From the IMG/VR virus record IMGVR_UViG_2651869845_000001: 64,000 nucleotides of DNA. One strand, written 5' to 3'. Every line of letters begins with the position of its first letter. Position 1 is the first letter of the stretch. The translations under genes were made by a program, and so were the position numbers. Positions 4,026 to 53,599 of the stretch are shown here, in pieces. This DNA comes from an uncultured virus (IMG/VR IMGVR_UViG_2651869845_000001). Lineage: Duplodnaviria; Heunggongvirae; Uroviricota; Caudoviricetes. Under the pieces are notes generated by a model, which was given only the letters and a program-made list of their open reading frames with translations, was not told the origin of the DNA and did not search any database.

Positions 4026-5015
4026 ACCCACGCCTACTGTCCCCGAGCTANNNNNNNNNNNNNNNNNNNNNNNNNNNNNNNNNNNNNNNNNNNNNNNNNN
4101 NNNNNNNNNNNNNNNNNNNNNNNNNNNNNNNNNNNNNNNNNNNNNNNNNNNNNNNNNNNNNNNNNNNNNNNNNNNNNNNNNNNNNNNNNNNNNNNNNNNN
4201 NNNNNNNNNNNNNNNNNNNNNNNNNNNNNNNNNNNNNNNNNNNNNNNNNNNNNNNNNNNNNNNNNNNNNNNNNNNNNNNNNNNNNNNNNNNNNNNNNNNN
4301 NNNNNNNNNNNNNNNNNNNNNNNNNNNNNNNNNNNNNNNNNNNNNNNNNNNNNNNNNNNNNNNNNNNNNNNNNNNNNNNNNNNNNNNNNNNNNNNNNNNN
4401 NNNNNNNNNNNNNNNNNNNNNNNNNNNNNNNNNNNNNNNNNNNNNNNNNNNNNNNNNNNNNNNNNNNNNNNNNNNNNNNNNNNNNNNNNNNNNNNNNNNN
4501 NNNNNNNNNNNNNNNNNNNNNNNNNNNNNNNNNNNNNNNNNNNNNNNNNNNNNNNNNNNNNNNNNNNNNNNNNNNNNNNNNNNNNNNNNNNNNNNNNNNN
4601 NNNNNNNNNNNNNNNNNNNNNNNNNNNNNNNNNNNNNNNNNNNNNNNNNNNNNNNNNNNNNNNNNNNNNNNNNNNNNNNNNNNNNNNNNNNNNNNNNNNN
4701 NNNNNNNNNNNNNNNNNNNNNNNNNNNNNNNNNNNNNNNNNNNNNNNNNNNNNNNNNNNNNNNNNNNNNNNNNNNNNNNNNNNNNNNNNNNNNNNNNNNN
4801 NNNNNNNNNNNNNNNNNNNNNNNNNNNNNNNNNNNNNNNNNNNNNNNNNNNNNNNNNNNNNNNNNNNNNNNNNNNNNNNNNNNNNNNNNNNNNNNNNNNN
4901 NNNNNNNNNNNNNNNNNNNNNNNNNNNNNNNNNNNNNNNNNNNNNNNNNNNNNNNNNNNNNNNNNNNNNNNNNNNCCGTGTCCTGCCCCTGGGCGCCGGC
5001 ACGAACTCCGTCCTG

Positions 5016-5039
5016 AATGTATTGTCATGCCAATACATT
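5016..5039 (+). promoter_or_regulatory. Palindromic operator-promoter O1
   Basis: AATGTATTG-tcatgc-CAATACATT (perfect arms extend 5012-5043); TTGTCA-17nt-TATGGT promoter on +. Confidence 0.85.
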
Positions 5040-5095: not shown

Positions 5096-5398
5096 ATGCA
5101 GACGATCACCGTCGAGCCCCTCGCCCAGGAGCACATCCAGATCCTCCGCCTCACCAGCACCCCGCACCTCAGCGGCGGCCTCGATACGATCGCCCCGTAC
5201 AGCGTGTGGATCACCTACCGACTCAACACCGGCGCGAACCAGCACACCTGGACTGCGGCCGTCTCCGGATACCGCGTCCTCCGTAACGGCGTCACCGACA
5301 TGGACGCCGCCAGCATCGTCCTCACAAACCTCGCCGACCAGGACACCACCCCCGACTGGCTCACAGACCTGATCGCGAAGTACACCCCGAGCTGGTAA
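5096..5398 (+). CDS. Hypothetical phage protein
   Basis: 100 aa, GGAG RBS, first gene after O1. Confidence 0.65.
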   Translation: MQTITVEPLAQEHIQILRLTSTPHLSGGLDTIAPYSVWITYRLNTGANQHTWTAAVSGYRVLRNGVTDMDAASIVLTNLADQDTTPDWLTDLIAKYTPSW

Positions 5399-6292: not shown

Positions 6293-6736
6293 CTATGACC
6301 GCGGCGTTTCCTGAACCTCGGCCGCGACTGCCGCCAGCTCGTCCTGGGCTCGCTTCAGGCGCTCCGCGGCCTTGCCGAGTTCCGTGTAGAGCGAGGTCAT
6401 GCGCTGCTGCTCGTCGGCGATTCGGCGTTTGGCGCGCTCCGCTCGCTCGGTGAGGATCTCGTAGCGCGGGCGGGCCGGTGTACGGCACGACGGCTTGCTA
6501 CGTGGCCGGGAGGAGCGCTCGGAAAGCCACGCCCTGGCCTCGGTGAGAACGTACAGGCGCGGAGCACGGGTGTGGTTGCCCTGGATGGCGACCACGGCGG
6601 GGAAGGTCGGATCGCGGCTGATCCAGTTGGAGACGGCGGCGCGTGTGACGCCGGCCAGTTCGGCGATCGCGTTTTGGTTGATCAGTTCGTCTTCTCGGCT
6701 CTCGAATTCGGGCCGGTGCCACGTCACCAGAGACAT
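6293..6736 (-). CDS. AlpA/Xis-like HTH protein with C-terminal coiled coil
   Basis: ELINQNAIAELAGVTRAAVSNWISRDPTFP...RLYVLTEARAWL; heptad-rich C-terminus. Confidence 0.75.
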   Translation of the reverse strand: MSLVTWHRPEFESREDELINQNAIAELAGVTRAAVSNWISRDPTFPAVVAIQGNHTRAPRLYVLTEARAWLSERSSRPRSKPSCRTPARPRYEILTERAERAKRRIADEQQRMTSLYTELGKAAERLKRAQDELAAVAAEVQETPRS

Positions 6737-10092: not shown

Positions 10093-10116
10093 AATGTATT
10101 GTGATGGCACTACATT
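10093..10116 (+). promoter_or_regulatory. Palindromic operator-promoter O2
   Basis: AATGTATTG-tgatgg-CACTACATT; TTGTGA-18nt-TAGAGT on +. Confidence 0.85.
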
Positions 10117-15718: not shown

Positions 15719-16252
15719 TCAGAGGGCGGCAACGGCCGCGCGGGCACCGCGGGTGACCAGGTCCAGCAGGTTGAGGTAGTTCCGCTCGCCGTCCAGGTAG
15801 CGGATCTCGTAGACGTCGGCCCCGTAGTGGCGGAAGTGGAGCAGGCCGTCAGCGGCGTCGAACCACACCTTGTCGATGGCGCCCAGGAGGCCAAGGGCGC
15901 GCCCGTTGGCGATGCCGCGGCCGTTAACGGAAGCCGAGGAGACGTTGCCGGTGCCGTAGCGGCTGACGTCGATGCCCGCCAGCTCGGCCCAGACGCCTTC
16001 GTTGAGGTAGACGCGGTCCATGCCGTTCTTCTGCCAGCGCCGGCCGCCGATCGCGGTCATCGACTCCGCGGTGAAGACGACGCGGCGGGCGGGGCGCTTC
16101 ATCCTGCCGATGGCGATGCGTGCGGCGAGGGAGGCCGTGTCGATGATCCACTGTCCGGCCTGCTTGACTGCGGCGACGACGCCGAGGCGGCACCAGGTGC
16201 GGACGGTGTCGACGGTGACGTGGGCCTCAACGGCTGCGGCGGTGGTGTTCAT
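15719..16252 (-). CDS. Excisionase-like HTH fusion protein
   Basis: TAAAVEAHVTVDTVRTWCRLG...GQWIID N-terminal HTH; WQKNGMDRVYLN C-terminal domain. Confidence 0.7.
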   Translation of the reverse strand: MNTTAAAVEAHVTVDTVRTWCRLGVVAAVKQAGQWIIDTASLAARIAIGRMKRPARRVVFTAESMTAIGGRRWQKNGMDRVYLNEGVWAELAGIDVSRYGTGNVSSASVNGRGIANGRALGLLGAIDKVWFDAADGLLHFRHYGADVYEIRYLDGERNYLNLLDLVTRGARAAVAAL

Positions 16253-24909: not shown

Positions 24910-24933
24910 AATGTAGTGCGATGGCAATACATT
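24910..24933 (-). promoter_or_regulatory. Palindromic operator-promoter O3
   Basis: AATGTAGTG-cgatgg-CAATACATT; on - strand TTGCCA-17nt-TAGAGT. Confidence 0.85.
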
Positions 24934-31591: not shown

Positions 31592-31615
31592 AATGTAGTG
31601 TCATGGCAATACATT
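31592..31615 (-). promoter_or_regulatory. Palindromic operator-promoter O4
   Basis: AATGTAGTG-tcatgg-CAATACATT; on - strand TTGCCA-17nt-TAGTCT. Confidence 0.85.
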
Positions 31616-36696: not shown

Positions 36697-37169
36697 GCGA
36701 GGACGCGGAGGACGGGGAGGCCTGCCTTCTTGGCGCGGCGGATGCAGTCTGCGGTGCCGTGGGAGTCGTGCGGTTGGGGCTTGCGGCAGGTGGCCCGAGT
36801 ACAGGGGCGGATGAAGGCCACGCATAGGCGGGGTTGGAGGTCGACCATGTGCTGGTTGCGGCGGTGGCCGGCTGTTGGGCAGTAGTCCCGGCCGGCTCGG
36901 GGCCGCCGGTGGCCGGGCGGGCATTGCGGGCTGCAGGGGCCTTCCCAGTCGGAGGGGTGGGGGTCTCGGGGGATGCCGTTGCTGAGGGCCCATTGGTCGG
37001 AGAGGTCGTCGGCTCCTTCGGCGGTGCCGTGGGTGATGAGGATGCCGTCGTAGCCGTCTTGGATGGCGTCGTGCCAGGTCTGGAGGAGGGTGTTGGCGAC
37101 GAGTTGGGTGTCGGTGAGGGTGCGGGGTCCGGTGATGAGGATCCGTGCGTAGTTGGGCGGGAGGTTCAT
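36693..37169 (-). CDS. SLOG/YspA-like (DUF2493) protein
   Basis: RILITGPR...ITHGTAEGADDL...AGHRRNQHMVD...HGTADCIRRA. Confidence 0.85.
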   Translation of the reverse strand: MNLPPNYARILITGPRTLTDTQLVANTLLQTWHDAIQDGYDGILITHGTAEGADDLSDQWALSNGIPRDPHPSDWEGPCSPQCPPGHRRPRAGRDYCPTAGHRRNQHMVDLQPRLCVAFIRPCTRATCRKPQPHDSHGTADCIRRAKKAGLPVLRVLA

Positions 37170-37960
37170 GCGGCACCGAACAGCCGCTTGGGCACGTCGC
37201 CGTGCTGTTCTTGGGCGGCGCGGGCGCGGGCGGCGGCGAGGCTGGCTTGGAGCCTGTCGGCCGGCTCGGGTGCGGTGAGGCGTTCCTGTTCGGCGACGGC
37301 GTCGGTGAAGGCGGTCTGGGGTTCGCGGCGGGTGGGGTGGGCGATGCGGGCGTTGAGGTCGTCGCGTGCGCGGGCGATGTGCGGGTCGTCGGCTGGCCGT
37401 GCGGGCTTGTGGGCGAGGGCTTCGGCCAGGGTCCGCTGGTAGCCGGGGGATGCGGTCTCCCGGGTGATGACCGGGCCGGGCTCCGGGGTCTGGTCGTGCT
37501 GGTCGGGCATGGTCGCGGTGGCGGGGGCCGCTATGGCGCCGACGGGCAGAACGCGGATTGACCGGACGGCGGGCTTGCCGAGCTTGTCGTTGATCTGCCG
37601 GGCCAGCTGCCCACCGAGGAGCCGGAGGTGCGCGGCGTAGGCGTGGGAGGCGGGGCGGAGATCGAGGCGGCCGCGTTCGGGGTCGTAGCTGACGGGTTGC
37701 ACGGTGTCCACGAACTGGGGGCAGAGGGTGGGCCACTGGTCGAGGATGCTGCCGCCGGTGAGGGCCAACCGCCAGTCCTGATCCGTGTTGATGCGTCCGA
37801 GGACGGCTCCGAGACCAACCGGGTCGCGGCCGTCGCCGCGTTCACGGCGGGTGGTGCGGGGCCTGGGGTTTGCTGTGGGGGCGGTCTTGGCGGTGGCCCG
37901 GTAGTTGGCGAGGGCCTGCCGTGCGAGGTCGGCGCCGGACGCGGTCTGCTGCTCAGGCAC
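37166..37960 (-). CDS. DciA/DUF721-like protein
   Basis: GADLARQAL...RDPVGLGAVL...ILDQWPTL...LDLRPASHAYAAHLRL...INDKLG...VRSIRV. Confidence 0.75.
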   Translation of the reverse strand: MPEQQTASGADLARQALANYRATAKTAPTANPRPRTTRRERGDGRDPVGLGAVLGRINTDQDWRLALTGGSILDQWPTLCPQFVDTVQPVSYDPERGRLDLRPASHAYAAHLRLLGGQLARQINDKLGKPAVRSIRVLPVGAIAAPATATMPDQHDQTPEPGPVITRETASPGYQRTLAEALAHKPARPADDPHIARARDDLNARIAHPTRREPQTAFTDAVAEQERLTAPEPADRLQASLAAARARAAQEQHGDVPKRLFGAA

Positions 37961-39458
37961 GGGAGGTCTCCATCCACGGGTTGAGGGTGATGTTGGAGGA
38001 CCGGCTGGCGAGGGCCTGGTCGACGAGGGCGCTGGTGTACAGGCGGCGGGCTTCCGTCTCGCCCAGGCCCTCGATGGCGAACTCGATGAGGCCGGGGTCT
38101 TTCTGGGCGGCGGCCCGCATCTCGATCACGTCGTCGCGGGTGAGGGTTCCGATGCCGGGGATCGCACCGGCAGGGATCTCACACAGGGACCCGTCTACCG
38201 GTTCTGGCAGAACCGGCCCCTGGCGTACCTGGGCGAACGCTTCGGCGGTGAGGCGGCGTACGTGGGCGCTGTTGGCGGTGCTGGTGGTGATGCCTTCGTC
38301 GTAGCCGGCGTGCCGGGCGTGTTCGGCTGTGCGGGACTCCTGCCAGGCGGCAACGGCGGTAGCGCGGCGCTGGGGGGTGGTGAAGAGGAGGTGGACGCCC
38401 TTGAGTCGGTGCGCGAGCATCCCGGACGGGCGGCGCACATCGCGGGCGGTGAGCGGCATGGTCTCTGCGATGGCCTGGACTTCGAGGGCTGTCCATCCGG
38501 CGTCGGCGACGTGGCGCACAATCCACGCGAGCCTTTGGGGGGATGCTCCGCCCAGCCACGGGATGAGGGTCATCAGTTCGCGGGCGAGCTGGTGACGGCG
38601 CCCGACCCGGTTGAGTTTCCGGGGCCCGCACTTGGACGTCTTCGGGGTGGGGGAATCTGCTTCCCCGCTTGCGAGCTTGCTTGTCTCAGAGGGAAGAGAG
38701 TTACAACCGGTGGGAGAAGACGCTGAGGTACCACCCTGCATTGGGGTGCAAAGGGACCCCCCGGAAACAGGGGTGGTGCGGGCCCGGCGACGACGCTTAC
38801 GGATCTTCCTCGCGGCCTTCTTGGCGAGCTTCCCGATCAGGGTTCGGGACTCGGGGGCGATGCCTACGGGGCGCCGTTGCAGCCCTTCGCCGGTGGTGCG
38901 GATCCCGAGGGCCGTGTCGAACACGGTGGGGATGATCCGCTCGTACACGGACGCCTGGTTGGGCTGCCCGGAGAGACGGGTGCCTTTGCTGCGGTAGGCG
39001 AGGAGCCCGGCTTCACGGAGCATGCCGAGGTGGTACTGCACGGTCCTCTCCGAGCAGTCCAGCTTGCGGGCGAGGTAGTCGATACCGGGCCGGCACTCGG
39101 ACAGGGCGGAGATTTCCTGCGCGATGAGGACGGTGGTGGGCCCCCAGGCGGGTCCGTGGGTGCGGGTGGGCTTGTACAGGCCGGAGCCGCTTACCCAGTG
39201 GATGGCTTGCATCCAGGAGTAGGGGTCGGTGGCGGTGCGTCCGGTCGTGGTGGCGACCCATTGGTGGGCTGCGTCCACGCGGAGGGTGCCGCCACGACCG
39301 GGATCATCACTCTCGCACATGCGTTCGAACGTGTCATGTGAACTGATCGTGTCGCCGGGGGCTGCGGGGGTGCGAGTTTCTTCGAGTGGACGGGAGTTTC
39401 CTCGCGAATCGCCCGAGCGGACATGCTGAAGCTGACAAGCAGGGGTTACGTACGGCAC
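37953..39458 (-). CDS. Putative replication initiator (HTH); start at 39458 or 39320
   Basis: RPGIDYLARKLDCSERTVQYHLGMLREAGLL winged HTH; directly upstream of dciA-like, parB and parA. Confidence 0.6.
   Translation of the reverse strand: MPYVTPACQLQHVRSGDSRGNSRPLEETRTPAAPGDTISSHDTFERMCESDDPGRGGTLRVDAAHQWVATTTGRTATDPYSWMQAIHWVSGSGLYKPTRTHGPAWGPTTVLIAQEISALSECRPGIDYLARKLDCSERTVQYHLGMLREAGLLAYRSKGTRLSGQPNQASVYERIIPTVFDTALGIRTTGEGLQRRPVGIAPESRTLIGKLAKKAARKIRKRRRRARTTPVSGGSLCTPMQGGTSASSPTGCNSLPSETSKLASGEADSPTPKTSKCGPRKLNRVGRRHQLARELMTLIPWLGGASPQRLAWIVRHVADAGWTALEVQAIAETMPLTARDVRRPSGMLAHRLKGVHLLFTTPQRRATAVAAWQESRTAEHARHAGYDEGITTSTANSAHVRRLTAEAFAQVRQGPVLPEPVDGSLCEIPAGAIPGIGTLTRDDVIEMRAAAQKDPGLIEFAIEGLGETEARRLYTSALVDQALASRSSNITLNPWMETSRA
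39313..39328. promoter_or_regulatory. Possible LexA (SOS) box
   Basis: TCGCAC-ATGC-GTTCGA, one mismatch to the actinobacterial TCGAAC-N4-GTTCGA consensus. Confidence 0.45.
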
Positions 39459-39678: not shown

Positions 39679-41130
39679 CTACGTCACCTGATCTCCCTTA
39701 CTGGGTGAGGTCTGTCCCTGCGCCGCTCCGGCGAGGAAGTCATTGCGGAAGCCGCCCAGTTCCGCGACGCGGATCATGTCGCGTGTCCAGTCACTCGGAC
39801 CGGCCGGGCCGTCCACGGTCTCGTTCCATCCCTGCCTGTAGTCGGGGTGGTGGCGCCACATGCGAGTGAAGAAGCGCATGGTCGAGCAGGGGAAGCCCGA
39901 GCTGCCGTGGCAGGTGTAGCAGCGCACCCAGTTCATGCCGTTGCGACCGACATGGGTAGCGTGCAGGCTCACGGCCAGCCGAAGAGACAGCACACGGTTC
40001 ATGGCCTCTTCGCGAGACGGGCCAGCCGGAAGTGCTTCGGCGTCTGCGAGTTCTTCGGTGAGGCGTGCGTACACGAAGTCCTCAGCGTGGAACTCCCAGC
40101 CGAAGTCGGGGTCGTCAGAGGTGAGGTAGGCGCTCATCGGTCGACCTCCGCTCGGCTCGCCTTGCTGGGCCTGGCCTGCTCCTGCGCTTGTCCGGGGCAG
40201 GAAGTCTGAGTGGTCTGGCCGCGCTGGAATTCGACCATGCGCAGCATCTGCTGCCCGAGCCGTTCCGCGTCATCGACGGGCATCTGCACTTCGATCTCGC
40301 GGCCGACGGCTGGCTTGCCGCCCTTCGTGATCGAGCCGGTGAAGCACACGTACCGCTCGCCGGTATCGCCCCATGCGGTGGCGAAGGTGCGGGGGAACGC
40401 GAAGCTGGTGACCTTGGCCAGCCAAGCTCGCTTCCGCCCTGGCCGGTTCCGCTGGTGCATGTTCAGCAGGGCGACCGCCGTGGTGACGACTTGGGCGATG
40501 TCGTCCGAGTCGGCTCTGGATTCGAGGAGCTCGTGAACCTGACGGATTGCGGCCTCGGCAAGGACAGGCGGCGCGGCTGCAAGTACGTCCCCGTAGAGGT
40601 TCTCACCCAGGGCGCTCATCGGCTTCCCTCCGTCAGGCCGTAGCCCTCAGCGAGGTTCTGCACGACGGGGCACACCTCGTGGTTGTAGAACCGAGCAAAC
40701 TCATCCAGGTCGCCGTCGTAGTCGTAGGCGGGGCATGAGTGGCCTCGCCCGCCGTGGAGTTCGAGGAGCTTCCGGTCGGCGGCGCAACGGCGCAAGACCG
40801 ACTCGGGATCGTTCAGGGCGATGTGGACGATCGATGCTGCACGGTTCTCCCGGGACCTGGCCACCAGGGCGTGCCGCTGATCCCGAACCCCGTACACGAA
40901 CGGGCCCTCAGACCAAGTCCCTCCGGCCTCGGATGCGGCGTCGCCGGCGATCCGCTCCCAGTTGGAAATGGCTCCGTTCAGCCAGCCGAGGATTCCCTCG
41001 CCGGCTGCCGTGCTCATCGTGCGGTCTGCGTAGGAGTGACAGGGCCCGTGTGCGTCGGCGGTGTGATGTTCACGCCGGTCTCGCGGGTCCCACTGTCTGA
41101 ACGGGCCGGGGCCCGGGTATTCTTCGCCAT
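39679..41130 (-). other. Hypothetical CDSs (39679-40137, 40134-40619, 40616-41017, 41014-41130)
   Basis: ATGA overlaps; the HIALNDPESVLRRCAADRKLL and HHPDYRQGW motifs resemble a common actinophage family. Confidence 0.6.
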
Positions 41131-41438: not shown

Positions 41439-41852
41439 CTAACCTGCCCTGAGCAGCAACAACGCACCTGGGGCAGACGGTTCAGGTGGGGTGATGTTGA
41501 TGATGTGCCCACTGGTTTCGGGGGTTTGGTGGCGGCGGTTGGTGCGTGCTGCGGTGGCGGCGGCACGGCATGTCCGGCAGCGGCAACCCTGGTTGTTGTA
41601 GCGGGATTCACCGTGCGCGGTGGTGTCCTGACGGACTTTCCGCCCGATCTGCTTGGCCTCCTGGACGGCCTGGGCGAAGCCTGGGTCGGCGCGTTGGTGG
41701 AGGCGGGGCAGGTTGGGGCTGATACCGACGTGGGCGGCGGCGTCCTTGAGGAGCATCCCCGTGGCGAGGGCTTCGAGGTATTGCTGGCGCCGGTCGGGGG
41801 TGAAGGTGACCTGCCTCCCCGGGCGGCGCTTCGCGGCGGCGACCTGGGTCAC
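41439..41852 (-). CDS. HTH protein with C-terminal HG...GCRC..C motif
   Basis: FTPDRRQQYLEALATGMLLKDAAAHVGIS; HGESRYNNQGCRCRTC. Confidence 0.65.
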   Translation of the reverse strand: MTQVAAAKRRPGRQVTFTPDRRQQYLEALATGMLLKDAAAHVGISPNLPRLHQRADPGFAQAVQEAKQIGRKVRQDTTAHGESRYNNQGCRCRTCRAAATAARTNRRHQTPETSGHIINITPPEPSAPGALLLLRAG

Positions 41853-42576
41853 GGGTGCCCGCCCTCACGCACACCCTGCGCCTCACCGTCGGCGGGGTGG
41901 TGGACGCTGGCACTCCGTCCGGTCAGACGGGCCATGCCCTCGTACCCGGCATCCCGCAGCTCGCCACGCAACCGGTTCAGCCCCTCAGCGGTCCACTGGG
42001 GGCGGGCGGTCATCTTCCCCGCCAGGTAGCCGACAGGCAGGGCCATGTCCCAGATACGGCGAACCACGTCGGGGTCGACGTCGGGGAACATCACCTCCGG
42101 TAGACGGGTGGGCCTGCCGACGTGGTCGAGCATGCCCTTGGCGATGAGCCCCGCCAGGTACTGGCCCGAGTCCTCGCAGCGTTCGGTGAGGGCTTGGTCG
42201 ACGACGGTGGGGTTGGCTGGTGGCAGGTTGTGGCTGGTGGTCACGGTCGCACCTCCGGAGTGACGTTGAAGGTTCCGTCACCGGCGAAGACGGCCTTGAT
42301 GTCGGCGAGGGCCATGCCCTCGAACGTCAACCAGCAGGCTGTGCAGGGCTTGCCGTCCAGGGGGACGGGCTCACCGCAGTACCGGCACGGTTCGCCGGGC
42401 TGTTCGGTGCCGTAGCTGCATGGGTGCTCGGGGTGGTGCGGGTGGGTGTTGAAGACGCACGCGTCGCGGGCCTGGGCTGCGCAGGCTCGGCAGAGGTCGG
42501 AGTCTGGGTCGCGCCAGTGCTGTTGGTACGTCTCGTCGCAGCGGAGGCAGTGGAAGGTCGGCTGGCTGGTGGTCAT
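41849..42576 (-). other. Two hypothetical CDSs (41849-42244, 42241-42576)
   Basis: Coupled ORFs; the second is Cys-rich. Confidence 0.55.
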
Positions 42577-43460
42577 GCGGCGGGCTCCAGTGCGGCGGGG
42601 GTGGGGAGGTTGAGGGGCAGGTGGGTGTGGTGGGTGGCGGGTACGAGGCGGAGCGCGCGCCGCAGGGGGTGCGGCGCGCGCTCGGGGCTCCTGGCGGGTG
42701 TGCGGCGGCCGCGCGGTAGGTGCTCGTACCCGGGGAGGATCAGCTGCACGGGTCGGGTGGGGGCGATACGGCGCTGCCGGATGCCGTCCGTCGTCGGCGC
42801 CGCCGCGTACGGCCAGGTTCCGTCGGGGCGGATCCGGGTCGACGGGGGGAGGATCCGGTGCTGCACCGCGGCGGCAAGGAGTTGGGCGCGGGTCGCGGTT
42901 TCCCTGTCCAGCCCGAGCATCGTGACGAGGGCGCTGCGGTGCCAGTTGGCGGTGCGGACGTCCATGCCGGCCCGGTATGCCACCAGCTCCGGGTCCGTCT
43001 CCCTGGCCAGGGAGCGGAGCACGGCGAGTTTCTGGGGGGTGCGGGCGTCCGCGACCGCCAGACGTGGGGTGTCCACCGCGGCGGGCAGGGTGCCATTTTG
43101 TGCTGCGGTCACGGCGGCGGCCCGGCGGGCGATCAGGGCCCGGTGCCGGGCCAGAGGGTGCTCACCTCCGAAGATGCCTTCCGGCTCCGCCAGATGCCCG
43201 TCCTCGGTCTCCGTGTTGGCGTACGCCGCACACAGGGCCCGTACCGGGCACCACCCGCAGATACGGACCGCGGCACGCTCCCGCGCCAGGCGCACACGCT
43301 GCGGCTCCTGACCGTCCCCCGTATACGGGGCCCACGCATCGACGGACACGTCCGGGTCGCCGGCCGACCGGCGCGGATCATCCTCGTCGGGGGCGCACCC
43401 CCGGTACTTGTACATCGGGTCGTCCGTCAACTGCTGGCGTGCGAGCTTCGGGTCGGTCAT
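42573..43460 (-). CDS. WhiB-like domain fused to LuxR-like HTH region
   Basis: YRGC...AVRICGWCPVRALC...EGIFGG; LVAYRAGMDVRTANWHRSALVTMLG. Confidence 0.65.
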   Translation of the reverse strand: MTDPKLARQQLTDDPMYKYRGCAPDEDDPRRSAGDPDVSVDAWAPYTGDGQEPQRVRLARERAAVRICGWCPVRALCAAYANTETEDGHLAEPEGIFGGEHPLARHRALIARRAAAVTAAQNGTLPAAVDTPRLAVADARTPQKLAVLRSLARETDPELVAYRAGMDVRTANWHRSALVTMLGLDRETATRAQLLAAAVQHRILPPSTRIRPDGTWPYAAAPTTDGIRQRRIAPTRPVQLILPGYEHLPRGRRTPARSPERAPHPLRRALRLVPATHHTHLPLNLPTPAALEPAA

Positions 43461-44127: not shown

Positions 44128-44931
44128 TCAGGCTGCGGCCACCAACGCGGCCTGGTTTCTGTGGGCGGTGCGGGCGTCCCGGCAGGGTGCACAGACCGGG
44201 ATGCCGATGCGGTAGTGGCTGCGGCGCCCGTCGGGTGTGCCGCACTTTCCGGTCCAGTCGGCGAACGCCTCCGGGGCATCGATCGTGTCGTCATCCCAGC
44301 AGCCGACCGGCGCCCAGTTGTGCTGTACCGCGATGCGCCGGGCGGCTTCCGCCCGGTGGGCAGGCACACCACCGTCGACAGGTTCGACACGCCACAGTTG
44401 GTCATACAGGCCGCTCACCGCACGGACGGTGCCCACCTGGACCAGGGTGCCGGTGATGGTCTTGCTGAGGTTCGCCTGGTGCATTCCGGTCCGCCGGGCC
44501 AGCTCGGATTGGGGCCAGCCCTTCGCGACGAGCGCCTGCAAACGGCGCCGGGTTCCTGTGCCGTCAACGGCAACGCGCGCCCCGAGATTGTCCAGTGTGG
44601 GTTGTACCGCGAGGATCGCCAGAGCATTCTTCGGTAGGAGCCTCTTCGACGGCGCGAGACCACGCTGTGGATCCCCGTACAGCAGCTTGGAAACAGAGCC
44701 GCGCGGGACGCCGGCCAGTCGAGCCAGCCGCATCCACCCGATACCGAACTCGCCCAGATTACGCACGTGGGCTCGGACAGGTTCAGCATCGACGAAGGGC
44801 TGCCAGCGGCCGTACGCGATGGCCCGGCGCCGGTTGTTGTCGTACTCGCTGGCAGCCGTGCAGCACGGGGCGCAGCGGCATCTCTCCAGGTGGTACTTCG
44901 CGTTTGTCCCGTGCCTGCGCGGGGCGCCCAT
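44128..44931 (-). CDS. Multi-HTH regulator with HGT...CRC..C Zn motif, paralogue of 25505-26437
   Basis: HGTNAKYHLERCRCAPC; LARLAGVPRGSVSKL; RRLQALVAKGW; CWDDDTIDAP. Confidence 0.7.
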   Translation of the reverse strand: MGAPRRHGTNAKYHLERCRCAPCCTAASEYDNNRRRAIAYGRWQPFVDAEPVRAHVRNLGEFGIGWMRLARLAGVPRGSVSKLLYGDPQRGLAPSKRLLPKNALAILAVQPTLDNLGARVAVDGTGTRRRLQALVAKGWPQSELARRTGMHQANLSKTITGTLVQVGTVRAVSGLYDQLWRVEPVDGGVPAHRAEAARRIAVQHNWAPVGCWDDDTIDAPEAFADWTGKCGTPDGRRSHYRIGIPVCAPCRDARTAHRNQAALVAAA

Positions 44932-46088
44932 CAGGCGGCGCTCCTTCCCGCGTCGGCGTCCTGGGTGGCCTGCTGGCTCTGGTGGCGCTGCTTCTGCGTG
45001 AAGGCGATCAGGTCACCGATTTTCGTGGGCTCACCATCCAGTCCAGGGACCAGAGCACCCAACTGGCCGCTCTGCTCCAACCGGATACGCAGTGCGCGGA
45101 TACCGTCCGGGTTGGTTGTCGGGTCCTTCACTCGCGCACCGGAGCCCATCAGACGGATCAGCGCACCCAAGGAGGTGGCCTGCTTGCCCAGGTCCAGGAC
45201 CGCGGCGCCCACCAAGCCCGCGGTCTCCGCGTCAGCCAGGAGGTTAAGGAGCTGCTGCGGGGTCTGCTGCGGGTCCACAGCCATCCGCGCGTAGTCCATG
45301 ACACCCAGGGCATTCCCCTCACCGTCGTCCAACCACTGCGCGATCGTCTGGCCGAAGGCGAACTCGGGCTTGTCGTGCTGCGACCCGACCTCGATGGTTG
45401 GGTACCGGGACTTGTCGACCGTCAACACATGCGACTGATCGAGGGCGCCGACCAAGTCGAACTCGTAGTCGATGCCGTCACGCTGGTCGAGCTTCATGCC
45501 GACCTTCGTGGGTTCCTTCTTGCCCTGGTTGTTCTCCTGGATGACCCACTCGGTCTTCACACGCATCGTGGTGATGACGTGCCCCGGGTAAGAAAGGATC
45601 GCGTCCAGCATGTCGAGGAGGAGCGGAGACACGTCCTTCCAGCCGGTCGTGAAGGCGTTCTTCGAGTTGGAGTTCCTTGTCTTCTGGTCGACCTGGGCGA
45701 GGGCCCCACCGCGGCCGGACCAGAAGTGCGTGAAGGAGTCGATGATGACGACGTCGATACCGCGGGCAGCAGCCACCGCCAGGGCTCGAATGAGTGCCTG
45801 CGGTTCGAAGCTGGGGAGCTTCATCGTCTTGAACGTGAACAGGCCGGCGTACTTGGAGGCGGACCCACGCTCGGTGTCGATGACCCCCAGAGTTCCACCC
45901 TCCGGCAGGAGCCCTGTGCCGATGCTGAGTGCCGTGTAGGTCTTCCCCGACCCGGATGGTCCGGTGAGAGCGATGCGGGCCTTCTCCGCGGCGCGTACGG
46001 CGTCTTCGAAGTCGAGGCCGTCAGCCTGATTTTGGGTGTGGGAAGTGGGACCGCCCGCGGATGCGGCGGCCTGAATGGCCTGCGCCAT
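44931..46088 (-). CDS. Phage AAA_24 / Sak4-like P-loop ATPase
   Basis: GPSGSGKT, VIDTERGSA, VIIDSFTHFW, QRDGIDYEFD, KSR. Confidence 0.88.
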   Translation of the reverse strand: MAQAIQAAASAGGPTSHTQNQADGLDFEDAVRAAEKARIALTGPSGSGKTYTALSIGTGLLPEGGTLGVIDTERGSASKYAGLFTFKTMKLPSFEPQALIRALAVAAARGIDVVIIDSFTHFWSGRGGALAQVDQKTRNSNSKNAFTTGWKDVSPLLLDMLDAILSYPGHVITTMRVKTEWVIQENNQGKKEPTKVGMKLDQRDGIDYEFDLVGALDQSHVLTVDKSRYPTIEVGSQHDKPEFAFGQTIAQWLDDGEGNALGVMDYARMAVDPQQTPQQLLNLLADAETAGLVGAAVLDLGKQATSLGALIRLMGSGARVKDPTTNPDGIRALRIRLEQSGQLGALVPGLDGEPTKIGDLIAFTQKQRHQSQQATQDADAGRSAA

Positions 46089-46168
46089 GAGGTCTCTCCT
46101 ATGGGTGATGACTGGTGCGGTGATGCGGGACCCGGTTGTCGGCGTCCAGGCCCGCACCACCGCGGGCA

Positions 46169-46699
46169 CTACTCGGTGCCCGAGCTCTCCGAGCCGTACG
46201 GCCCGATCCCGTAATGCGCATACAAGGCGTGCGCGGCCACCGTCGACACGAACAGCCCCGTACGCTGCTGCGACACCTTCAGCTCACGGCACCGGGCAGC
46301 AACATCCGCGTGCAGATCCTTGTCAGGCGTCACATTCAAAATGGCGCGCGTCTCGCCGGCACCCCGGGTAGCCCGCGGTTCCTTCTCCGGCATCCACTCC
46401 CCGTCCAGGAACCGGCGGAAGTAGTCCTCGACCACCCGGGTCGGCGACTCCCCCGCAGCCTTCGCGAGACGCTTCACCTGGTCCTTGCGGCTGGTGGGCA
46501 TGCTCACCGGGAGGTTGGGGTTCCGGTCGTCGTCACTGTCGAGACGGTCGACGCGGATCCGGCCGACGAACGCCACACCCTGGGGGGAGAGGACGTAGTC
46601 GACGGACTCGGCAAGGTCTACCCGGTCGGTGTCGCGGAGGACTTGGGCTGCGGTGACCAGGTTGTCGCGGTGCTGCTGGTCGTCGGGCTTGAGGGCCAC
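46169..46699 (-). CDS. Tandem ribbon-helix-helix-like DNA-binding protein (candidate repressor)
   Basis: NLPVSMPTSRKDQVKRLAKAAGESPTRVVEDYFRRF and ILNVTPDKDLHADVAARC...VSTVAAHAL; AAGGA RBS before GTG 46699 (alternative ATG 46789). Confidence 0.6.
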   Translation of the reverse strand: MALKPDDQQHRDNLVTAAQVLRDTDRVDLAESVDYVLSPQGVAFVGRIRVDRLDSDDDRNPNLPVSMPTSRKDQVKRLAKAAGESPTRVVEDYFRRFLDGEWMPEKEPRATRGAGETRAILNVTPDKDLHADVAARCRELKVSQQRTGLFVSTVAAHALYAHYGIGPYGSESSGTE

Positions 46700-46792
46700 T
46701 CGGGGTCCTTTCGGCGGGCGCCGCAGGGACCGGGTGGTTCGGCCGGGCGGGCGCGTGGTGGGGGCGTTGGCCACGCCAGTGTCCTCCATTCG

Positions 46793-46810
46793 GTAGTGCC
46801 ATTGCCATAC
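46793..46810. promoter_or_regulatory. Degenerate operator O6
   Basis: GTAGTG-ccattg-CCATAC; same core geometry as the full operators and the same spacer as O5. Confidence 0.55.
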
Positions 46811-46869
46811 GGGATGTTGGCGGGGTGGCAGAGGGGTTGGTGGTGCGTGCTGTCCCAGACTCTACGCCC

Positions 46870-46893
46870 AATGTATTGCAATGGCAATACATT
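46870..46893. promoter_or_regulatory. Palindromic operator O5 / bidirectional promoter
   Basis: AATGTATTG-caatgg-CAATACATT; + strand TTGCAA-17nt-TACGGT, - strand TTGCCA-17nt-TAGAGT. Confidence 0.88.
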
Positions 46894-46935
46894 GGGTCTA
46901 CGGTGGGGACCACACCACAAGCAGCGGGGGCCCAA

Positions 46936-47325
46936 ATGCGCATCACCAACCGGCAGACCACCACCAAGACCCTCGCCGACCTCTACCGGGCTCTCGACCA
47001 CCAGCACGCCGTCAGCGTCACCTATCGGAAGGAGACCGGCGAAGAGTCGGTCCGGACCATCGAGATCGAAGACATCCGCACCACCAAGTCCGGCAACATC
47101 ATCATCCGCGCCTACGACCGGGCCACCGGAGAAGCCCGCACCTTCCGTCTGACCGGCATCCTCACCTACACCTGCCACCGCAGCACCTACCAGGTCCCCC
47201 GCCTCAGCGAGGACACTGAGCAGCACCTGCCCGTACCGACCACCGCCGCCGCGCTCATCGCCTACGAAATCAACCGGGACACCATCGCCGCCGTGCACCG
47301 CACCCGCACTACGCTCGCCGCCTGA
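46936..47325 (+). CDS. Stand-alone WYL-domain protein
   Basis: AVSVTYRKETGEESVRTIE...IRAYDRATGEARTFRLTGI. Confidence 0.85.
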   Translation: MRITNRQTTTKTLADLYRALDHQHAVSVTYRKETGEESVRTIEIEDIRTTKSGNIIIRAYDRATGEARTFRLTGILTYTCHRSTYQVPRLSEDTEQHLPVPTTAAALIAYEINRDTIAAVHRTRTTLAA

Positions 47326-47340
47326 TAGGAGAATCCAGCC

Positions 47341-47484
47341 ATGAAGACGTACACCCTGACGATGCGCATCGAAGCCGACGACGACGCGAACGCTGAGCAG
47401 ATCCGCGAAGAGCTCTACGACGCCGCTGGCGACGTTCCGTTCGGCTTCGACATCACGGAGGTCAGCGAGACGGACAATCACTGA
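47341..47484 (+). CDS. Small acidic protein
   Basis: 47 aa read by eye (MKTYTLTMRIEADDDANAEQIREELYD...); AGGAG RBS. Confidence 0.55.
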   Translation: MKTYTLTMRIEADDDANAEQIREELYDAAGDVPFGFDITEVSETDNH

Positions 47485-47506
47485 TAGGGCAGAGACCCGG
47501 CATGAG

Positions 47507-47539
47507 AAGGCCACCTACCCGCCCGGGTGGTGGCCTTTG
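47507..47539. terminator. Probable terminator
   Basis: AAGGCCACC...GGTGGCCTT stem. Confidence 0.55.
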
Positions 47540-47625
47540 GTCATACGCCGCTGACGACGCGGACAGCGTAGCGGATCACGGCTCCCCACCACCACCCAAC
47601 CCGCCAACCAGCCACAATTGGACCC

Positions 47626-47829
47626 ATGAGACACCGCCCGAAACGACAGCCCGCACTCGTCGGAACCGCCGGACTGGCCAGGGTCAAGATCGTTTGCACC
47701 GAATGCAAAAGGGAGTTGACCGACAAGGTCTCGCGAGCCCGCCGGAAGGGACCTGAGTGCGACCCCGAGCCCCGCAACGGGCAAGGACCCGACCACCACG
47801 TCGACCAAGACCCGCTCCCCGGCACCTGA
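47626..47829 (+). CDS. Small Zn-finger protein
   Basis: CTECKRELTDKVSRARRKGPEC. Confidence 0.55.
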   Translation: MRHRPKRQPALVGTAGLARVKIVCTECKRELTDKVSRARRKGPECDPEPRNGQGPDHHVDQDPLPGT

Positions 47830-47830
47830 C

Positions 47831-48916
47831 TCAGCCCGGCCGGCCCGGCAACGGGGCCACGTCCACCGACCTGCGCAACTGCTCCATGCGTGTCGGCATC
47901 GGCTCCCACCCATGCTGACCCCCCATCACAAAGTTCAACGCTGTCACCCCACGCACATAGGCTTTCCGCAGGCCGATCGGGCTCAACGGCAACCCCACCA
48001 CCCCGCCGGCACCCGTCGTCTTCAACGTCACCCACAACGCCGTCCGGGCACCCTCCAACGGCAGCAGGTTCACCAGGCGCTCCCGGACCTCCAACCACCG
48101 GCGCACCGCCACCCGCGACCCCTCCCGCAGCGCGTACCACTCCACCTCCGGCAACTCCCCCAGCTCCGCCACCGCAGCCAAAACCCGCTGCCGAGTCGCC
48201 TCCGACACCTGATCCAACCGCCCCCACAAGACCTGCTCCACCGCCGACGGCCGGACCTCAGCCAACGCCGCGATCTGCTCCGCACGGTTCGGGGGGCCCT
48301 TCTGCTGCCGCCGGCGAACCCCCACCGCAGCCTCACCCTCCACCAGATCGTCCACCCGCATGCGGGCCAACTCCCCCGACCGGGCCCGCGAGTCCAACAC
48401 GACCGCCACCATCGCCAACGTCCGCGTCCGATCCTCGAACGACAAGGCCGTACCCGCCGACTCCAGCGGCCCAGCCGCCGCCAGGTCCACCAACCCCCGG
48501 TACAAGGCATCCAGGCCCCGCGGCGCCACGGTCTCCCTCAGATCCGGCTCCCCCACCGACGGCAACCACAACCGCCGGCCTGCGGGCAGAACCCGGCGCC
48601 CCAAGATGTGCAGGCAGTCCCGCACAATCCGCTGCGTCGCCAACGGCAACTCCGTTCCGCGGTCCTCCTCCCGGGCCCGCAGCTCGCCGGCCACCGCCAG
48701 ATCCCAGAACACCCGCAGCACCGGCAAGGTGAAGAACTGCTGGCACCGGCGCAGAGACCGGTCCCCCATCTCCGGCCGGCCCACCGCCCGGTCCCACATC
48801 CCCAGGACCATCCGCAGCTGCTGCATCCGCTGCGACGACACCTCCCCCACCATGCCGTCGACCACCGCGGACAACTGCCGGACGGACGCGGCGTCGTACT
48901 GCCTGGGCACAGTCAC
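47831..48916 (-). CDS. Tyrosine-recombinase-fold protein lacking the catalytic Tyr, with LacI-like HTH insertion
   Basis: RTLAMVAVVLDSRARSGELARMRVDDL (box I); ends shortly after EQLRRS; insert IAALAEVRPSAVEQVL...VSEATRQRVLAAVAELG. Confidence 0.7.
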   Translation of the reverse strand: MTVPRQYDAASVRQLSAVVDGMVGEVSSQRMQQLRMVLGMWDRAVGRPEMGDRSLRRCQQFFTLPVLRVFWDLAVAGELRAREEDRGTELPLATQRIVRDCLHILGRRVLPAGRRLWLPSVGEPDLRETVAPRGLDALYRGLVDLAAAGPLESAGTALSFEDRTRTLAMVAVVLDSRARSGELARMRVDDLVEGEAAVGVRRRQQKGPPNRAEQIAALAEVRPSAVEQVLWGRLDQVSEATRQRVLAAVAELGELPEVEWYALREGSRVAVRRWLEVRERLVNLLPLEGARTALWVTLKTTGAGGVVGLPLSPIGLRKAYVRGVTALNFVMGGQHGWEPMPTRMEQLRRSVDVAPLPGRPG

Positions 48917-48984
48917 TCCTCTTCGTCTGTGGCGGGTAGCCGTTCAGCGATACGCGCCGCGATTCACGTGGCCCCTTGTGGCCG

Positions 48985-49608
48985 TCAGCCCGTCAGCGGG
49001 TGTTGCAGGTTCAGTAGGACGCAGATGTCGGTGCTGTCGTACGCCCAGCGGGCTACTCCGCCGTCTTCTTCCAGATGCAGCAGCGTTCGACTGGGCAGAG
49101 TGGTGCCGACCTCCAGCGGAATCCGCGAGGGTCGAACAATGGTCGGCATCGTCAGCGGCTCTGGTATGACGCATCCTGCCGTGTAGGACACTCCCGTTGA
49201 GAGCGTGACGACGATGTCCTCGGACCACTCCACAATGCCGTCCTCGTCGGCGGCGTTTTGGCCGAGGTCCAGGCGCACAGTGAACGGGTCGGGTAGGTCA
49301 GTCAGCGCTGCTGCGTTGGCGGCCCGCTCTGTATCGGGCCGCGGCGCCGTGCCGACTCCGATGTGAACCATGGCGAACCGGCCGGCGCCGACCGCAGCGT
49401 GGATGTCGAGGAAGGCGGCAACCTGGTGTACGGGCCAGCGCCCCGGGGTCAGGCGGTGCATCTGCCCGACGGCGGCCACGAACCCGGGGGTGAAGTGGTC
49501 GCTACCAGCAAGCCGGTTGCGCGTCCGAACGAGCGCAGCGGCCGTGTGCTCGCGGGTCATCATGCGATCGAGGACAGCGTGCGCGCCGCGTTCGTGGCTG
49601 GTGGTCAC
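48985..49608 (-). CDS. Hypothetical protein
   Basis: 207 aa, GTGA overlap with the recombinase gene. Confidence 0.6.
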   Translation of the reverse strand: MTTSHERGAHAVLDRMMTREHTAAALVRTRNRLAGSDHFTPGFVAAVGQMHRLTPGRWPVHQVAAFLDIHAAVGAGRFAMVHIGVGTAPRPDTERAANAAALTDLPDPFTVRLDLGQNAADEDGIVEWSEDIVVTLSTGVSYTAGCVIPEPLTMPTIVRPSRIPLEVGTTLPSRTLLHLEEDGGVARWAYDSTDICVLLNLQHPLTG

Positions 49609-50633
49609 AGGCCGATTCCGATCAACGCGTTGTCGGTTTCATCCCACTGGTCAACGATGCGCATGTAGCCGTCCAGCACCTTGGAACCGTCCTTGTGCCC
49701 GGTGATCGCCGCGATGGCCTTACGGTCCTTGCCCTTGCGACGTGCCTCTGTCGCCATGCCGGAGCGTACCGAGTGGCCCGTGAACAATTCCTCGTATCCG
49801 GCACGCAGCCCTGCTGCGGTGATGATATCGCCGGCCCGCTGCGGCGTCAGGCCCTGCGGCTGGACGCTGCCCGTGTGGTGGAGACGGCGAAACGCATGCC
49901 GGTCCGGGTCGGTGATCCCGGCCGCCTCCTGCCACGCCTTCCAGGCCCGCACAGGGCACGTCAGCACGTGCTCCCCGTACGGGACAGGAACGGTACGTGG
50001 GTCAGTCTTGGAGACGCGCACGTCGACCAGGAGGCCCTTCTCGTCATCGCGGATGTTCCGCAGCCGCAGCCCGGCCAGCTCCGCCCGGCGGGCCGCGATG
50101 GAGAACCCGAGGAGCAGCATGGCCCGGTCCCGGAGCCCGAACACGTCATCGCCGCACAGCGACACAATGTGCTGCAGGTCAGCCAGCCGCATAGCGGGCG
50201 CCTTACCGCGGCCCCGCGCGGGCTCCTCGTCTTCCTCGGACTTCTTCCGGTAGTCCTTGAGCAGTTCCCGGGCGGCTTTGGTGGCGTTCGGGTCGACGAC
50301 GACGCTGTACTGGGTGCGCAGGGTCACGGTGACCCCGGCGAGCTTCCGGTCGATGGTGGCGTACGCGCGCTTCTCCCGGTTCCACAGGTAGTCAACGAAG
50401 GCGCGGAGGGTGCCTCGGGTGGCTGCGGTGGTGGGGATCTGGAACTGCTCGCAGAACAGGGTCCAGGTCTTCCAGTCGCCAGCGTAGGCGCGAGTGGTGT
50501 TGTCGGGGCGCTGCTCCTGGGCGTGGCTGTCGGAAGCCCGGTCGAGGGCGGCGAGGCGGGCAAGCAGTTCGGCGTCGAACTCTGCGGGAAGGAGCGGGCG
50601 TCCGGTCGATCTGGTAGGCAGGTGGGCGGTCAC
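49605..50633 (-). CDS. Cre-like tyrosine recombinase (342 aa)
   Basis: NTTRAYAGDW core-binding domain; RDRAMLLLGFSIAARRAEL, VSKTD, GHSVRSGMAT, TGH, VLDGY. Confidence 0.9.
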   Translation of the reverse strand: MTAHLPTRSTGRPLLPAEFDAELLARLAALDRASDSHAQEQRPDNTTRAYAGDWKTWTLFCEQFQIPTTAATRGTLRAFVDYLWNREKRAYATIDRKLAGVTVTLRTQYSVVVDPNATKAARELLKDYRKKSEEDEEPARGRGKAPAMRLADLQHIVSLCGDDVFGLRDRAMLLLGFSIAARRAELAGLRLRNIRDDEKGLLVDVRVSKTDPRTVPVPYGEHVLTCPVRAWKAWQEAAGITDPDRHAFRRLHHTGSVQPQGLTPQRAGDIITAAGLRAGYEELFTGHSVRSGMATEARRKGKDRKAIAAITGHKDGSKVLDGYMRIVDQWDETDNALIGIGL

Positions 50634-50845
50634 CGGAAGTCTCCGCTGGCACATGAGGAGCAGATGATGCGGTTGTCTCCCTTGTCGGCGCCACAGATGC
50701 GGCAGGCCTTGTCCGCAGGGTGGCGGGGGCAGAACAGGCGTCCGATGGCGTCCCCCGTCCATCCGGCTTCCGCTGTGGGAGTCGGCTCGTAGGCTGGGCA
50801 CTCCTCAACGGTGCACACCATGGCGACGGGTGTGGGTTGGCTCAT
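50630..50845 (-). CDS. Small Cys-rich protein
   Basis: CTVEEC...GW...FCPRH...CRIC...CSSC; GTGA overlap. Confidence 0.55.
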   Translation of the reverse strand: MSQPTPVAMVCTVEECPAYEPTPTAEAGWTGDAIGRLFCPRHPADKACRICGADKGDNRIICSSCASGDFR

Positions 50846-52937: not shown

Positions 52938-53408
52938 ATGGCCACCTTCTACCGCGTCCACTGGACCGAACTCGGCGACCTCACCGCCGCGAACGCCTGG
53001 TCATCCCTCACGGGAATCGACCGCAAGCCAGGCGACCTCAGCAAGTCCGAGTGCCAGATGTGCGACGCCAGCGAAGGCGAGTGGACCGAGTGCCGCCACT
53101 GCGAAGCCCTTGGCTGCGACAAGTGCGACGGTCAGGGCGGCAGCACCACCTGCACCAACTGCGACGGCACCGGATGGGAAGACTGCATCCGCGGCTACTC
53201 CTGCTACTCCACACCCGAGAGCCTGATCACTTACTACGCCGAGTCCGGCCGCAGCGGCATGGTCCCCGACGCTGAGCGCGTCATCATCTTCGAGGGCTGG
53301 CAAACCGACACCGGATTCGACGACGAACCCACCGCCGTCCCCGAGCAGATCATCGAAACCCTGACCTGGGCCGAATTCCGCGCCCGGTACGAAGAGGACG
53401 CCGCATGA
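52938..53408 (+). CDS. Hypothetical protein with DnaJ-like Zn finger insert
   Basis: CQMC, CRHC, CDKCDGQG, CTNCDGTG; flanked by FYRVH and GYSCYST. Confidence 0.7.
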   Translation: MATFYRVHWTELGDLTAANAWSSLTGIDRKPGDLSKSECQMCDASEGEWTECRHCEALGCDKCDGQGGSTTCTNCDGTGWEDCIRGYSCYSTPESLITYYAESGRSGMVPDAERVIIFEGWQTDTGFDDEPTAVPEQIIETLTWAEFRARYEEDAA

Positions 53409-53599
53409 AGACCATGACCGCCCGCCAGTGCGCCGACGCCTGGGGCATCTCCTACGGCCGCGCACGCGCCATCCTCGGAACACTGGAACCCGTCGGCCGA
53501 GACATCACCACCGGCGCCAAGCTCTACGAGCAGGACGCGGCAGAGACAGCTCGGTCCGCCATGCCCGGACAGGGCAAGCGCACCGACCTGAAACGGTAG
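53405..53599 (+). CDS. Small HTH protein
   Basis: MTARQCADAWGISYGRARAIL...PGQGKRTDL; ATGA overlap. Confidence 0.7.
   Translation: MKTMTARQCADAWGISYGRARAILGTLEPVGRDITTGAKLYEQDAAETARSAMPGQGKRTDLKR

Follow-up and report, generated by a model that had tools for sequence, protein, structure and literature searches.

A likely tandem ribbon-helix-helix repressor of dispersed operators in a ZL12-like Streptomyces phage-plasmid

In the immI region of phage P22, the ribbon-helix-helix (RHH) repressors Arc and Mnt use a beta-sheet to read palindromic operators at divergent promoters. Both are short proteins that work as homo-oligomers; they regulate an antirepressor, and P22 has a CI-type repressor in addition. 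Phage P1, a plasmid prophage, relies on one repressor that does not cleave itself (C1), which acts at many dispersed operators that overlap promoters; C1 is not known as an RHH protein, and the sites that it binds are asymmetric. Here, we analyze a divergent pair of genes, at 46169-47484, in the first 64 kb (hereafter, the window) of a 93,290-bp virus record (IMG/VR IMGVR_UViG_2651869845_000001). A tandem-RHH protein of 201 amino acids (46169..46774, minus strand) faces a protein of 129 amino acids with only a WYL domain (46936..47325, plus strand) across a palindromic operator. By analogy, the module is best read as a dispersed-operator repressor regulon that would resemble those of P1 C1 or P22 Arc/Mnt, built from an undescribed family of AvtR/TraY-like tandem-RHH proteins. 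In particular, we think it likely that the RHH protein is a resting-state repressor that holds the promoters at the main operator (O1) and at four distal early sites shut, and that the WYL unit is merely one of its targets.

Compared to Arc and Mnt, the window protein has two RHH units per chain (or four, in some relatives) and dispersed operators, and no CI-type protease was found. The regulon is like that of P1 C1 in its dispersed operators, but we identified no antirepressor equivalent in the window element. Another similar protein is AvtR of Acidianus filamentous virus 6, which, according to PMC5569661, is a single-chain tandem viral RHH protein that acts at several genomic sites, represses its own gene, and controls a neighbor. 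AvtR differs in that it is from an archaeal virus, lacks the N-terminal helical domain, and has 18% identity (structural match, Z 4.4), whereas the window family has discrete palindromes over bacterial −35 boxes, is very diverse, and occurs in two- and four-unit forms. The tandem-RHH proteins TraY (F plasmid) and VirC2 (Ti plasmid) are among the best structural matches; their roles are as relaxosome or T-DNA accessory proteins, but nothing in the window element points to oriT.

The WYL domain is shared with PafBC, DriD, SiwR, CapW, BrxR, and RspWYL1, and its profile matches PafBC chains (E = 5.7e-05). Unlike these proteins, the window WYL protein has no detected helix-turn-helix (HTH) or WCX domain, belongs to a family in which the arginine pair for binding single-stranded DNA is mostly lost, and is encoded by a separate and repressed gene. 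(According to PMC6789036, HTH precedes WYL in >90% of WYL proteins.) Similarly, PMC6547453 describes RspWYL1 as a tandem RHH and a WYL domain in one chain, whereas the window has them in separate divergent genes.

The nearest known elements are pZL12/ZL12, along with pCQ3, pSLE1, and pSAM1. The divergon is shared with pZL12, where pZL12.30c (annotated as hypothetical; a four-unit RHH homolog with 37% identity to our central query) faces pZL12.31 (a WYL protein, annotated as a transcriptional regulator) across the same type of operator. The records of ZL12-type elements give the RHH gene no function and mention no operators, and the window differs in that its RHH protein has two units and its operator is a variant of its own. 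We found no description of the RHH repressor family or of the operator in the literature within our reach, which did not include subscription papers such as Zhong et al., 2010, on pZL12.

Judging from its genes, the source element is a ZL12-like (ZL12/pCQ3/pSAM1-type) Streptomyces phage-plasmid. The record is 97% complete and, like the ~90-kb phage-plasmids of this type, combines a length of 93,290 bp with genes of the virion region that recur in up to 14 of the 18 related plasmids and with a pZL12-like divergon. ParA/ParB-like genes were noticed in the window by inspection only, and an autonomous plasmid state and lytic growth are just predicted for this element. The window RHH protein matches 25 Streptomyces plasmid records of 85-102 kb, and with a central homolog as the query, we reached 38 PLSDB records (pCQ3, pSLE1, and pSAM1 among them) and phage ZL12 (GQ919031.1). 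Direct searches with the window protein gave two non-self homologs; it had none in viral contigs by pattern search and none in the phage collection, and ZL12 was reached only via the central homolog. As the RHH alignment is too diverse for pattern searches, we anchored a set of loci on the WYL gene instead. This set misses elements that have lost WYL, and some of its loci duplicate plasmid records. Also, the 18 related plasmids were chosen by RHH homology, so that a homolog in all 18 is expected by selection.

Operators over −35 boxes and the protein that may read them

O1 is a perfect palindrome, CCCAATGTATTGC-N4-GCAATACATTGGG (46867..46896), with 13-bp arms (46867-46879 and 46884-46896) and a 4-nt spacer. 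It lies over the −35 boxes of two divergent promoters and is at the same place in all 19 whole elements. The leftward promoter (TTGCCA-17-TAGAGT, 46859..46887, minus strand), which is the only sigma-70-like match within 45500-48500, would transcribe the RHH gene, and RNA reads on locus L118 show transcription of its ortholog. The rightward promoter (TTGCAA-17-TACGGT, 46876..46904, plus strand) would drive the WYL gene and a cargo slot behind it. A preliminary description of this DNA, made from its letters alone, had claimed a perfectly symmetric operator with promoters on both strands, and indeed the arms are fully complementary and each strand has a promoter match. That description had also pointed to a weak operator in the RHH leader. 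Taken alone, this second site (O2, 46790..46813, directly upstream of the RHH ribosome-binding site) is not above chance, with a match of 12/20, but its position is conserved: in all 46 of the related loci, the best site in the search range of −130 to −60 falls at −107 to −119, within a 13-base window before the ribosome-binding site. The scores of these counterparts range from weak to strong.

Four distal copies, which begin at 5016, 10093, 24910, and 31592, agree with O1 in 18 or 19 of the 20 arm positions. In control searches, 200 palindromes with shuffled arms gave no matches at 16/20 or above and a mean of 0.2 matches at 14/20 or above, and the reversed pattern gave none. On the plus strand, the copies lie over TTGTCA-17-TATGGT (5016..5039, heading a unit that starts at 5096) and over TTGTGA-18-TAGAGT (10093..10116, heading a unit that starts at 10218). 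On the minus strand, they lie over TTGCCA-17-TAGAGT (24910..24933) and TTGCCA-17-TAGTCT (31592..31615) and head leftward units that start at 24851 and 31519, respectively. Thus, every copy in the window overlaps a TTG(Y)-17/18-TAnnnT promoter match at its −35 box, and only O1 does so on both strands. Each relative has 3-5 distal copies of its own operator variant, in which the spacer is 3, 4, or 5 nt long. Across 70 distal sites (four sites of W10 were added by hand and one of W11 was dropped), exactly one TTG-16/18-TAnnnT promoter was found in 63, none in 7, and two in 0, with a chance rate for such a match of 0.0024 per strand. pSAM1, for which expression data is available, has O1, O2, and distal operators at 40165, 34221, and 19690. 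As the operator variants agree within an element and differ between elements, the binder is expected to be encoded by the element itself.

The RHH gene is the likely candidate. Of 51 loci anchored on WYL, 46 have this gene on the other side of O1; by inspection, one of the other five is at a contig edge and four have a small single-RHH-like or HTH-like gene with different repeats. So, as far as tested, we found no relatives that keep the operators and lose the RHH gene, an outcome that the preliminary description had named as fatal to its proposal. In these four loci (L132, L135, L154, and L137, by inspection), which belong to other Streptomyces elements, the WYL family is divergent from a small gene with one RHH-like unit in three cases and from an HTH-like gene in the fourth, each with its own repeats.

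The gene most likely starts at the GTG at 46774, behind GGAGG (201 amino acids). A second in-frame start is the GTG at 46699, behind AGGA (176 amino acids). The Arg/Pro-rich extension of 22-26 amino acids between them (46700-46774 in the window) is in frame in all 34 scorable loci, of 45 examined, so it is possible that two ribosome-binding sites give two isoforms of the repressor. Behind this basic extension, an AlphaFold model made from 45 sequences (mean pLDDT 92.4) has a domain of three N-terminal helices and then two beta-alpha-alpha units, RHH1 (46513-46406, minus strand) and RHH2 (46348-46211, minus strand), with strands at residues 63-68 and 118-123 that are each followed by two helices. 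This agrees with the two RHH-like units that had been recognized from the translation. The top five VIA matches to residues 58-173 are all RHH-type, with Z of 5.1-7.5, which is only modestly above unrelated helical rows. The best is a chain of the F relaxosome (9f0x_E, Z 7.5, root-mean-square deviation 3.5, 95 aligned residues), which we take to be TraY, and further matches are WYL1 (6oaw, Z 6.0), DndE (5.7), single-chain Arc (5.5), VirC2 (2rh3, 5.1), and AvtR. On these VIA rows, the two units of the predicted model pack as a tandem-RHH pseudo-dimer like those of solved folds, and within the whole-protein comparison, the three N-terminal helices had no specific match. A sequence-profile search of the PDB with the RHH protein gave only rows with E > 0.2 (Mnt and SvtR among them), and Pfam Arc matches 8 of 45 family members (best 6.5e-06).

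The family is very diverse, with 284 clusters at 50% identity and a median pairwise identity of about 32%, as would be expected of an immunity-type repressor. Some relatives carry four RHH units instead of two. Some homologs (P0090, P0129, P0132, P0144, and the one at L020) have extra C-terminal domains that look HTH/AlpA-like by inspection, and 69 of 151 homologs have two modules.

To relate this diversity to the operators, we compared all protein columns to all half-site positions (36 clusters at 60% identity, 9438 tests; L117 was left out). The best result was for position 124 in the 176-residue numbering (T124 in the window, codon at 46328..46330, minus strand), which is at the end of the RHH2 strand, and the innermost base of the operator. 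Clusters with Arg124 have C rather than another base in 26 versus 0 cases, and the other clusters in 2 versus 8 (p = 1.5e-6, or 5.4e-6 if two related clusters are merged). Among all 64 rows, Arg124 goes with an innermost C in both halves of O1 in 45/45, and other residues go with T in 15/19. On the tree, Arg124 was lost 10 times and T was gained 7 times, always in non-Arg lineages. The coupling extends to unlinked distal half-sites, where T occurs in 0/80 for 11 Arg elements and in 34/46 for 6 Thr elements. Contact of arginine with the guanine on the opposite strand could explain this pattern.

Expression of the regulon and a proposed mechanism

For pSAM1 of S. ambofaciens, whose RHH gene is RS36555, we used the RNA-seq tables in supplement 18 of PMC11302927. 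In MP24, the RHH gene is well transcribed (log2 reads per kb of 9.3), with lower values for WYL (4.1), the bet fragment (4.8), and the operator-headed genes RS36460 (1.6), RS36395 (4.0), and RS36260 (6.8). In HT medium, the log2 fold changes are +1.0 for RHH, +3.0 for WYL, +1.3 for the bet fragment, and +7.9, +7.5, and +5.7 for the three operator-headed genes, respectively. Across 13 conditions, RHH varies 4-fold, WYL varies 16-fold, and the operator-headed genes vary 108- to 3447-fold. The pattern of WYL resembles that of the three operator-headed genes (rho = 0.97, 0.87, and 0.86) more than that of four other genes (rho = 0.42-0.78). These data fit a repressor that is made at rest from a transcript of its own and that has WYL among its targets.

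Stranded reads on L118 (same element) agree with a single-gene transcript. In run X20, depth was 54-75 over the RHH gene and 0-3.5 over the recombinase gene that follows it, and 12 molecule ends lay directly beyond the hairpin between the two, with a drop in depth; run X21 agrees on the recombinase. (Read strand was assigned by the usual first-mate convention. Runs X17 and X18, in which both strands had reads, contributed to neither the strand assignment nor the levels.) In the window, the corresponding hairpin is at 46117..46163 (minus strand), has a conserved GCCGACA loop, and is likely a terminator between the RHH gene and the recombinase. A long stem is found there in 21/21 elements examined (z of −0.5 to −4.6), in most cases with the GCCGACA loop. 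Thus, the expectation in the preliminary description that the RHH gene is cotranscribed with an ATPase operon does not hold at rest, given these depths and the low level of the bet fragment in pSAM1. There is an ATPase gene downstream, but it can be named more precisely as a Sak4-like (AAA_24) single-strand annealing protein (44931..46088, minus strand, by Pfam) that lies behind the hairpin.

We propose that, at O1 and at the four distal promoters, the RHH protein occupies the palindrome that covers the −35 boxes and would thereby keep the early operons shut. Each single-chain pair of RHH units would read one half-site with its two-stranded sheet, so that the palindrome would be spanned by two molecules or, in some relatives, by a single protein with four units. 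The leftward promoter would serve for maintenance, with only mild autorepression via O1 and O2, and the hairpin would stop the RHH transcript before the recombinase. If so, then a second control, probably antitermination, would be needed for lytic functions. Because the targets open 16- to >3000-fold but RHH mRNA changes only about 4-fold, release presumably occurs by inactivation or titration of the RHH protein and not by shutting off its gene. The trigger would be something other than self-cleavage: Peptidase_S24 was absent from the element's own record and from 20 related records (0/21 in all), in a search whose control was positive in 9 of 14 genomes. This matches the earlier remark that no CI-type self-cleaving repressor was seen.

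One lead for a damage input that would not need WYL is a LexA-like box before the replication operon. Using the general LexA-box consensus, we found a site at 39313-39328, some 35 bp ahead of a gene for an HTH protein that resembles replication initiators (37953-39278), which is followed by a DciA gene (37166-37960). With up to 2 mismatches, such a site precedes the initiator homolog in 8 of 18 elements, as compared to 0.3% of 862 control regions, and it is missing in the other 10. In pSAM1, SOS genes do not rise in HT medium.

The WYL protein and other explanations

The preliminary description suggested that the WYL protein, an acidic protein of 47 amino acids encoded behind it, or both might act as a sensor or antirepressor. 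The WYL protein does consist of one WYL domain (residues 11-76, 32.3 bits versus a cut-off of 21.8) with no other Pfam match, as had been claimed; the N-terminal HTH and C-terminal WCX of regulators of the wHTH-WYL-WCX type (wHTH, winged HTH) were not detected in it. Its gene is the first of an operator-controlled unit. The reading of a sensor would be that the WYL-only protein or the 47-residue peptide senses single-stranded DNA or another nucleic acid and removes the RHH repressor, as a split form of an RHH-WYL regulator, and the low level of WYL would then fit with positive feedback. The WYL gene is divergent from RHH in 15 of 18 plasmids and, at three further Streptomyces loci, faces genes with one RHH-like unit, WYL1 (6oaw) is the second VIA match and RspWYL1 fuses the two domains (PMC6547453), and 16 columns, five arginines included, are invariant in 45 WYL sequences, so that a conserved WYL could contact a conserved surface of the repressor. 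However, 3 of 18 plasmids, including pCQ3, have an unrelated gene in place of WYL, with the operators and RHH intact. The pairwise identities of WYL and RHH are nearly uncorrelated (rho = 0.07; at the extremes, WYL of 93% identity with RHH of 26%, and RHH of 80% with WYL of 49%). Also, PMC11804915 reports that R211 and R214 of PafB are needed for binding of single-stranded DNA. These align with R71 and G74 in the window, so that one arginine is kept, and across the 45 sequences, both are present in 5 and neither in 20. In every one of the 13 pSAM1 conditions, reads per kb for WYL are lower than those for RHH by a factor of 6-47, and among 151 RHH homologs (from the best 150 of 284 matches) we found no WYL domain and hence no fusion of the RspWYL1 type. 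The 47-residue open reading frame exists as claimed (47341..47484, plus strand), but it lies in a hypervariable slot (29 families among 39 genes, with no conserved small gene), and a homolog was found in none of 18 plasmids and, by tblastn, in none of the fetched loci, although short proteins are easily missed. We rejected it as an antirepressor. In the slot behind WYL, the one operator-headed unit that was screened for this, there is no conserved small gene that might be a counterpart of the P22 immI-type antirepressor. Overall, WYL is most likely one of the RHH-repressed targets rather than a damage sensor, and a WYL or peptide sensor is unlikely. We are just as doubtful about a larger scheme of a CI-free switch, in which a tandem-RHH immunity repressor with a simple residue-base code would be relieved by WYL as a nucleic-acid-triggered antirepressor or amplifier (a split WYL1), and a GCCGACA-loop terminator would be a second gate. 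As a separate matter, we looked for a PafBC-type promoter pattern and rejected it because it had no consistent placement.

If not the RHH protein, some other protein of the element might bind the operators, and RHH would be a regulated neighbor. The candidates are the HTH gene at 41439-41852, a WhiB-like gene (42573-43460), and universal genes at 1422, 32115, and 41849; besides the RHH gene, all 18 plasmids have four genes in common, and several candidates outscore RHH when the whole protein is compared to the distal motifs. But the single residue-base coupling that we found is in the RHH strand, the start of the RHH gene has a pair of operators around it at every locus, the WYL loci without a tandem RHH are also without an O1-type palindrome, and higher-scoring genes may simply mark lineage, so another binder seems slightly less probable still than a WYL sensor. 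It is more improbable again that the RHH protein is an activator or dual regulator of the early promoters. Sites centered on −35 can recruit polymerase, and RHH mRNA is positively correlated with its targets in pSAM1 (rho = 0.45-0.77); also, according to PMC5569661, AvtR both activates and represses. In contrast, the pSAM1 RHH gene is well transcribed while the targets are among the most silent genes, the promoters are near the housekeeping consensus, and the operator covers the −35 box itself. The explanation to which we give the least credence is that the palindrome is just two back-to-back −35 boxes or the site of a host factor. The core TTGY..RCAA is indeed a −35 box on both strands at O1, but the distal copies are palindromic even though none of 70 has promoters on both strands, and the arms and spacer vary between elements and agree within them.

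Several results weigh against repression by the RHH protein. Foldseek gave no match at E of 0.001 (best 4.5e-3) and the structural Z-scores are middling. By strict geometry, O1 has two promoters in only 9 of 19 elements, with one promoter in 9 and none in 1. The coupling at position 124 is imperfect: elements with Met or Ser have T in 0/14 distal half-sites, of the six Thr elements for which distal sites were available, five fall in a single clade, and the window itself has C/C at O1 despite its Thr and has T in 3/8 of its own distal halves. An under-powered test of independent pairs on well-supported branches gave 3.1 in the same direction and 0 opposite (median p = 0.25). For the whole protein, co-variation of RHH with the distal motif is weak (Spearman 0.38, partial r = 0.08, p = 0.27, rank 15 of 35 families), and the HTH gene at 41439-41852, present in 13 of 19 elements, scores 0.69/0.29 in the same test. 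Hence, the co-variation of RHH and palindrome that had been anticipated holds for one residue and one base (the top of 9438 tests) and not for the protein as a whole. As for expression, the WYL correlation was compared to only four control genes, many pSAM1 genes without operators also rise in HT medium, and WYL is not always silent (depth of 4-14 in run X21, versus 13-46 for RHH). Finally, pSAM1 virion genes mostly do not rise in HT medium while the regulon opens, and PMC11302927 reports almost no pSAM1 DNA in particles in the condition examined. With a regulon that opens without virion genes and with few particles, a reading as the master switch between lysis and lysogeny stays beyond the pSAM1 data. 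We still consider the RHH protein to be the likely autoregulated repressor of the palindrome, as had been proposed, on the strength of its fold, its linkage to O1, and the expression of pSAM1, with binding as a prediction.

Neighboring features and significance

The recombinase slot behind the hairpin varies: relatives have Sak4-like, ERF, Rad52/Rad22, Bet, or ATP-binding proteins there, and the flanks stay fixed. The GCCGACA heptamer lies within a long stem at 33 of 997 occurrences, as compared to 0.3-1.1% for three control heptamers. Long hairpins of this kind occur once or twice per element (for example, at about 90751 in G000), which suggests that they may be a class of terminators with a protein-recognized loop.

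A second LexA-box-like site, beside small genes, is 0.5-2.7 kb from a NERD-nuclease homolog in W02, W06, W08, W15, W17, and W18 and is at 27671 in pSAM1; in the matching part of the window, there is none with up to 2 mismatches. Directly to the right of the divergon (47831-50801) are two tyrosine-recombinase-like genes, one of which has an inserted match to a LacI-type HTH. Small variable cassettes with excisionase/HTH-like genes, at 15719-16252, 52938-53599, and 6293-6736, are found in 0-2 of 18 relatives. By inspection, 1009-1033 and 4051-4975 are runs of N, and the former directly follows a transposase-like fragment at 647-988.

These results point to a probable master repressor, together with its operators, in a group of Streptomyces phage-plasmids that is widespread and unstudied (ZL12 and 38 PLSDB records) and in which we found no CI-type repressor. 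With RS36555 of pSAM1, the question can be tested in an S. ambofaciens strain that already carries the element. The 284 clusters, with their matched operator variants and one residue-base coupling, are a natural set for studying the specificity of RHH proteins and superinfection immunity groups, and the family may be a source of orthogonal repressor-promoter parts for Streptomyces.

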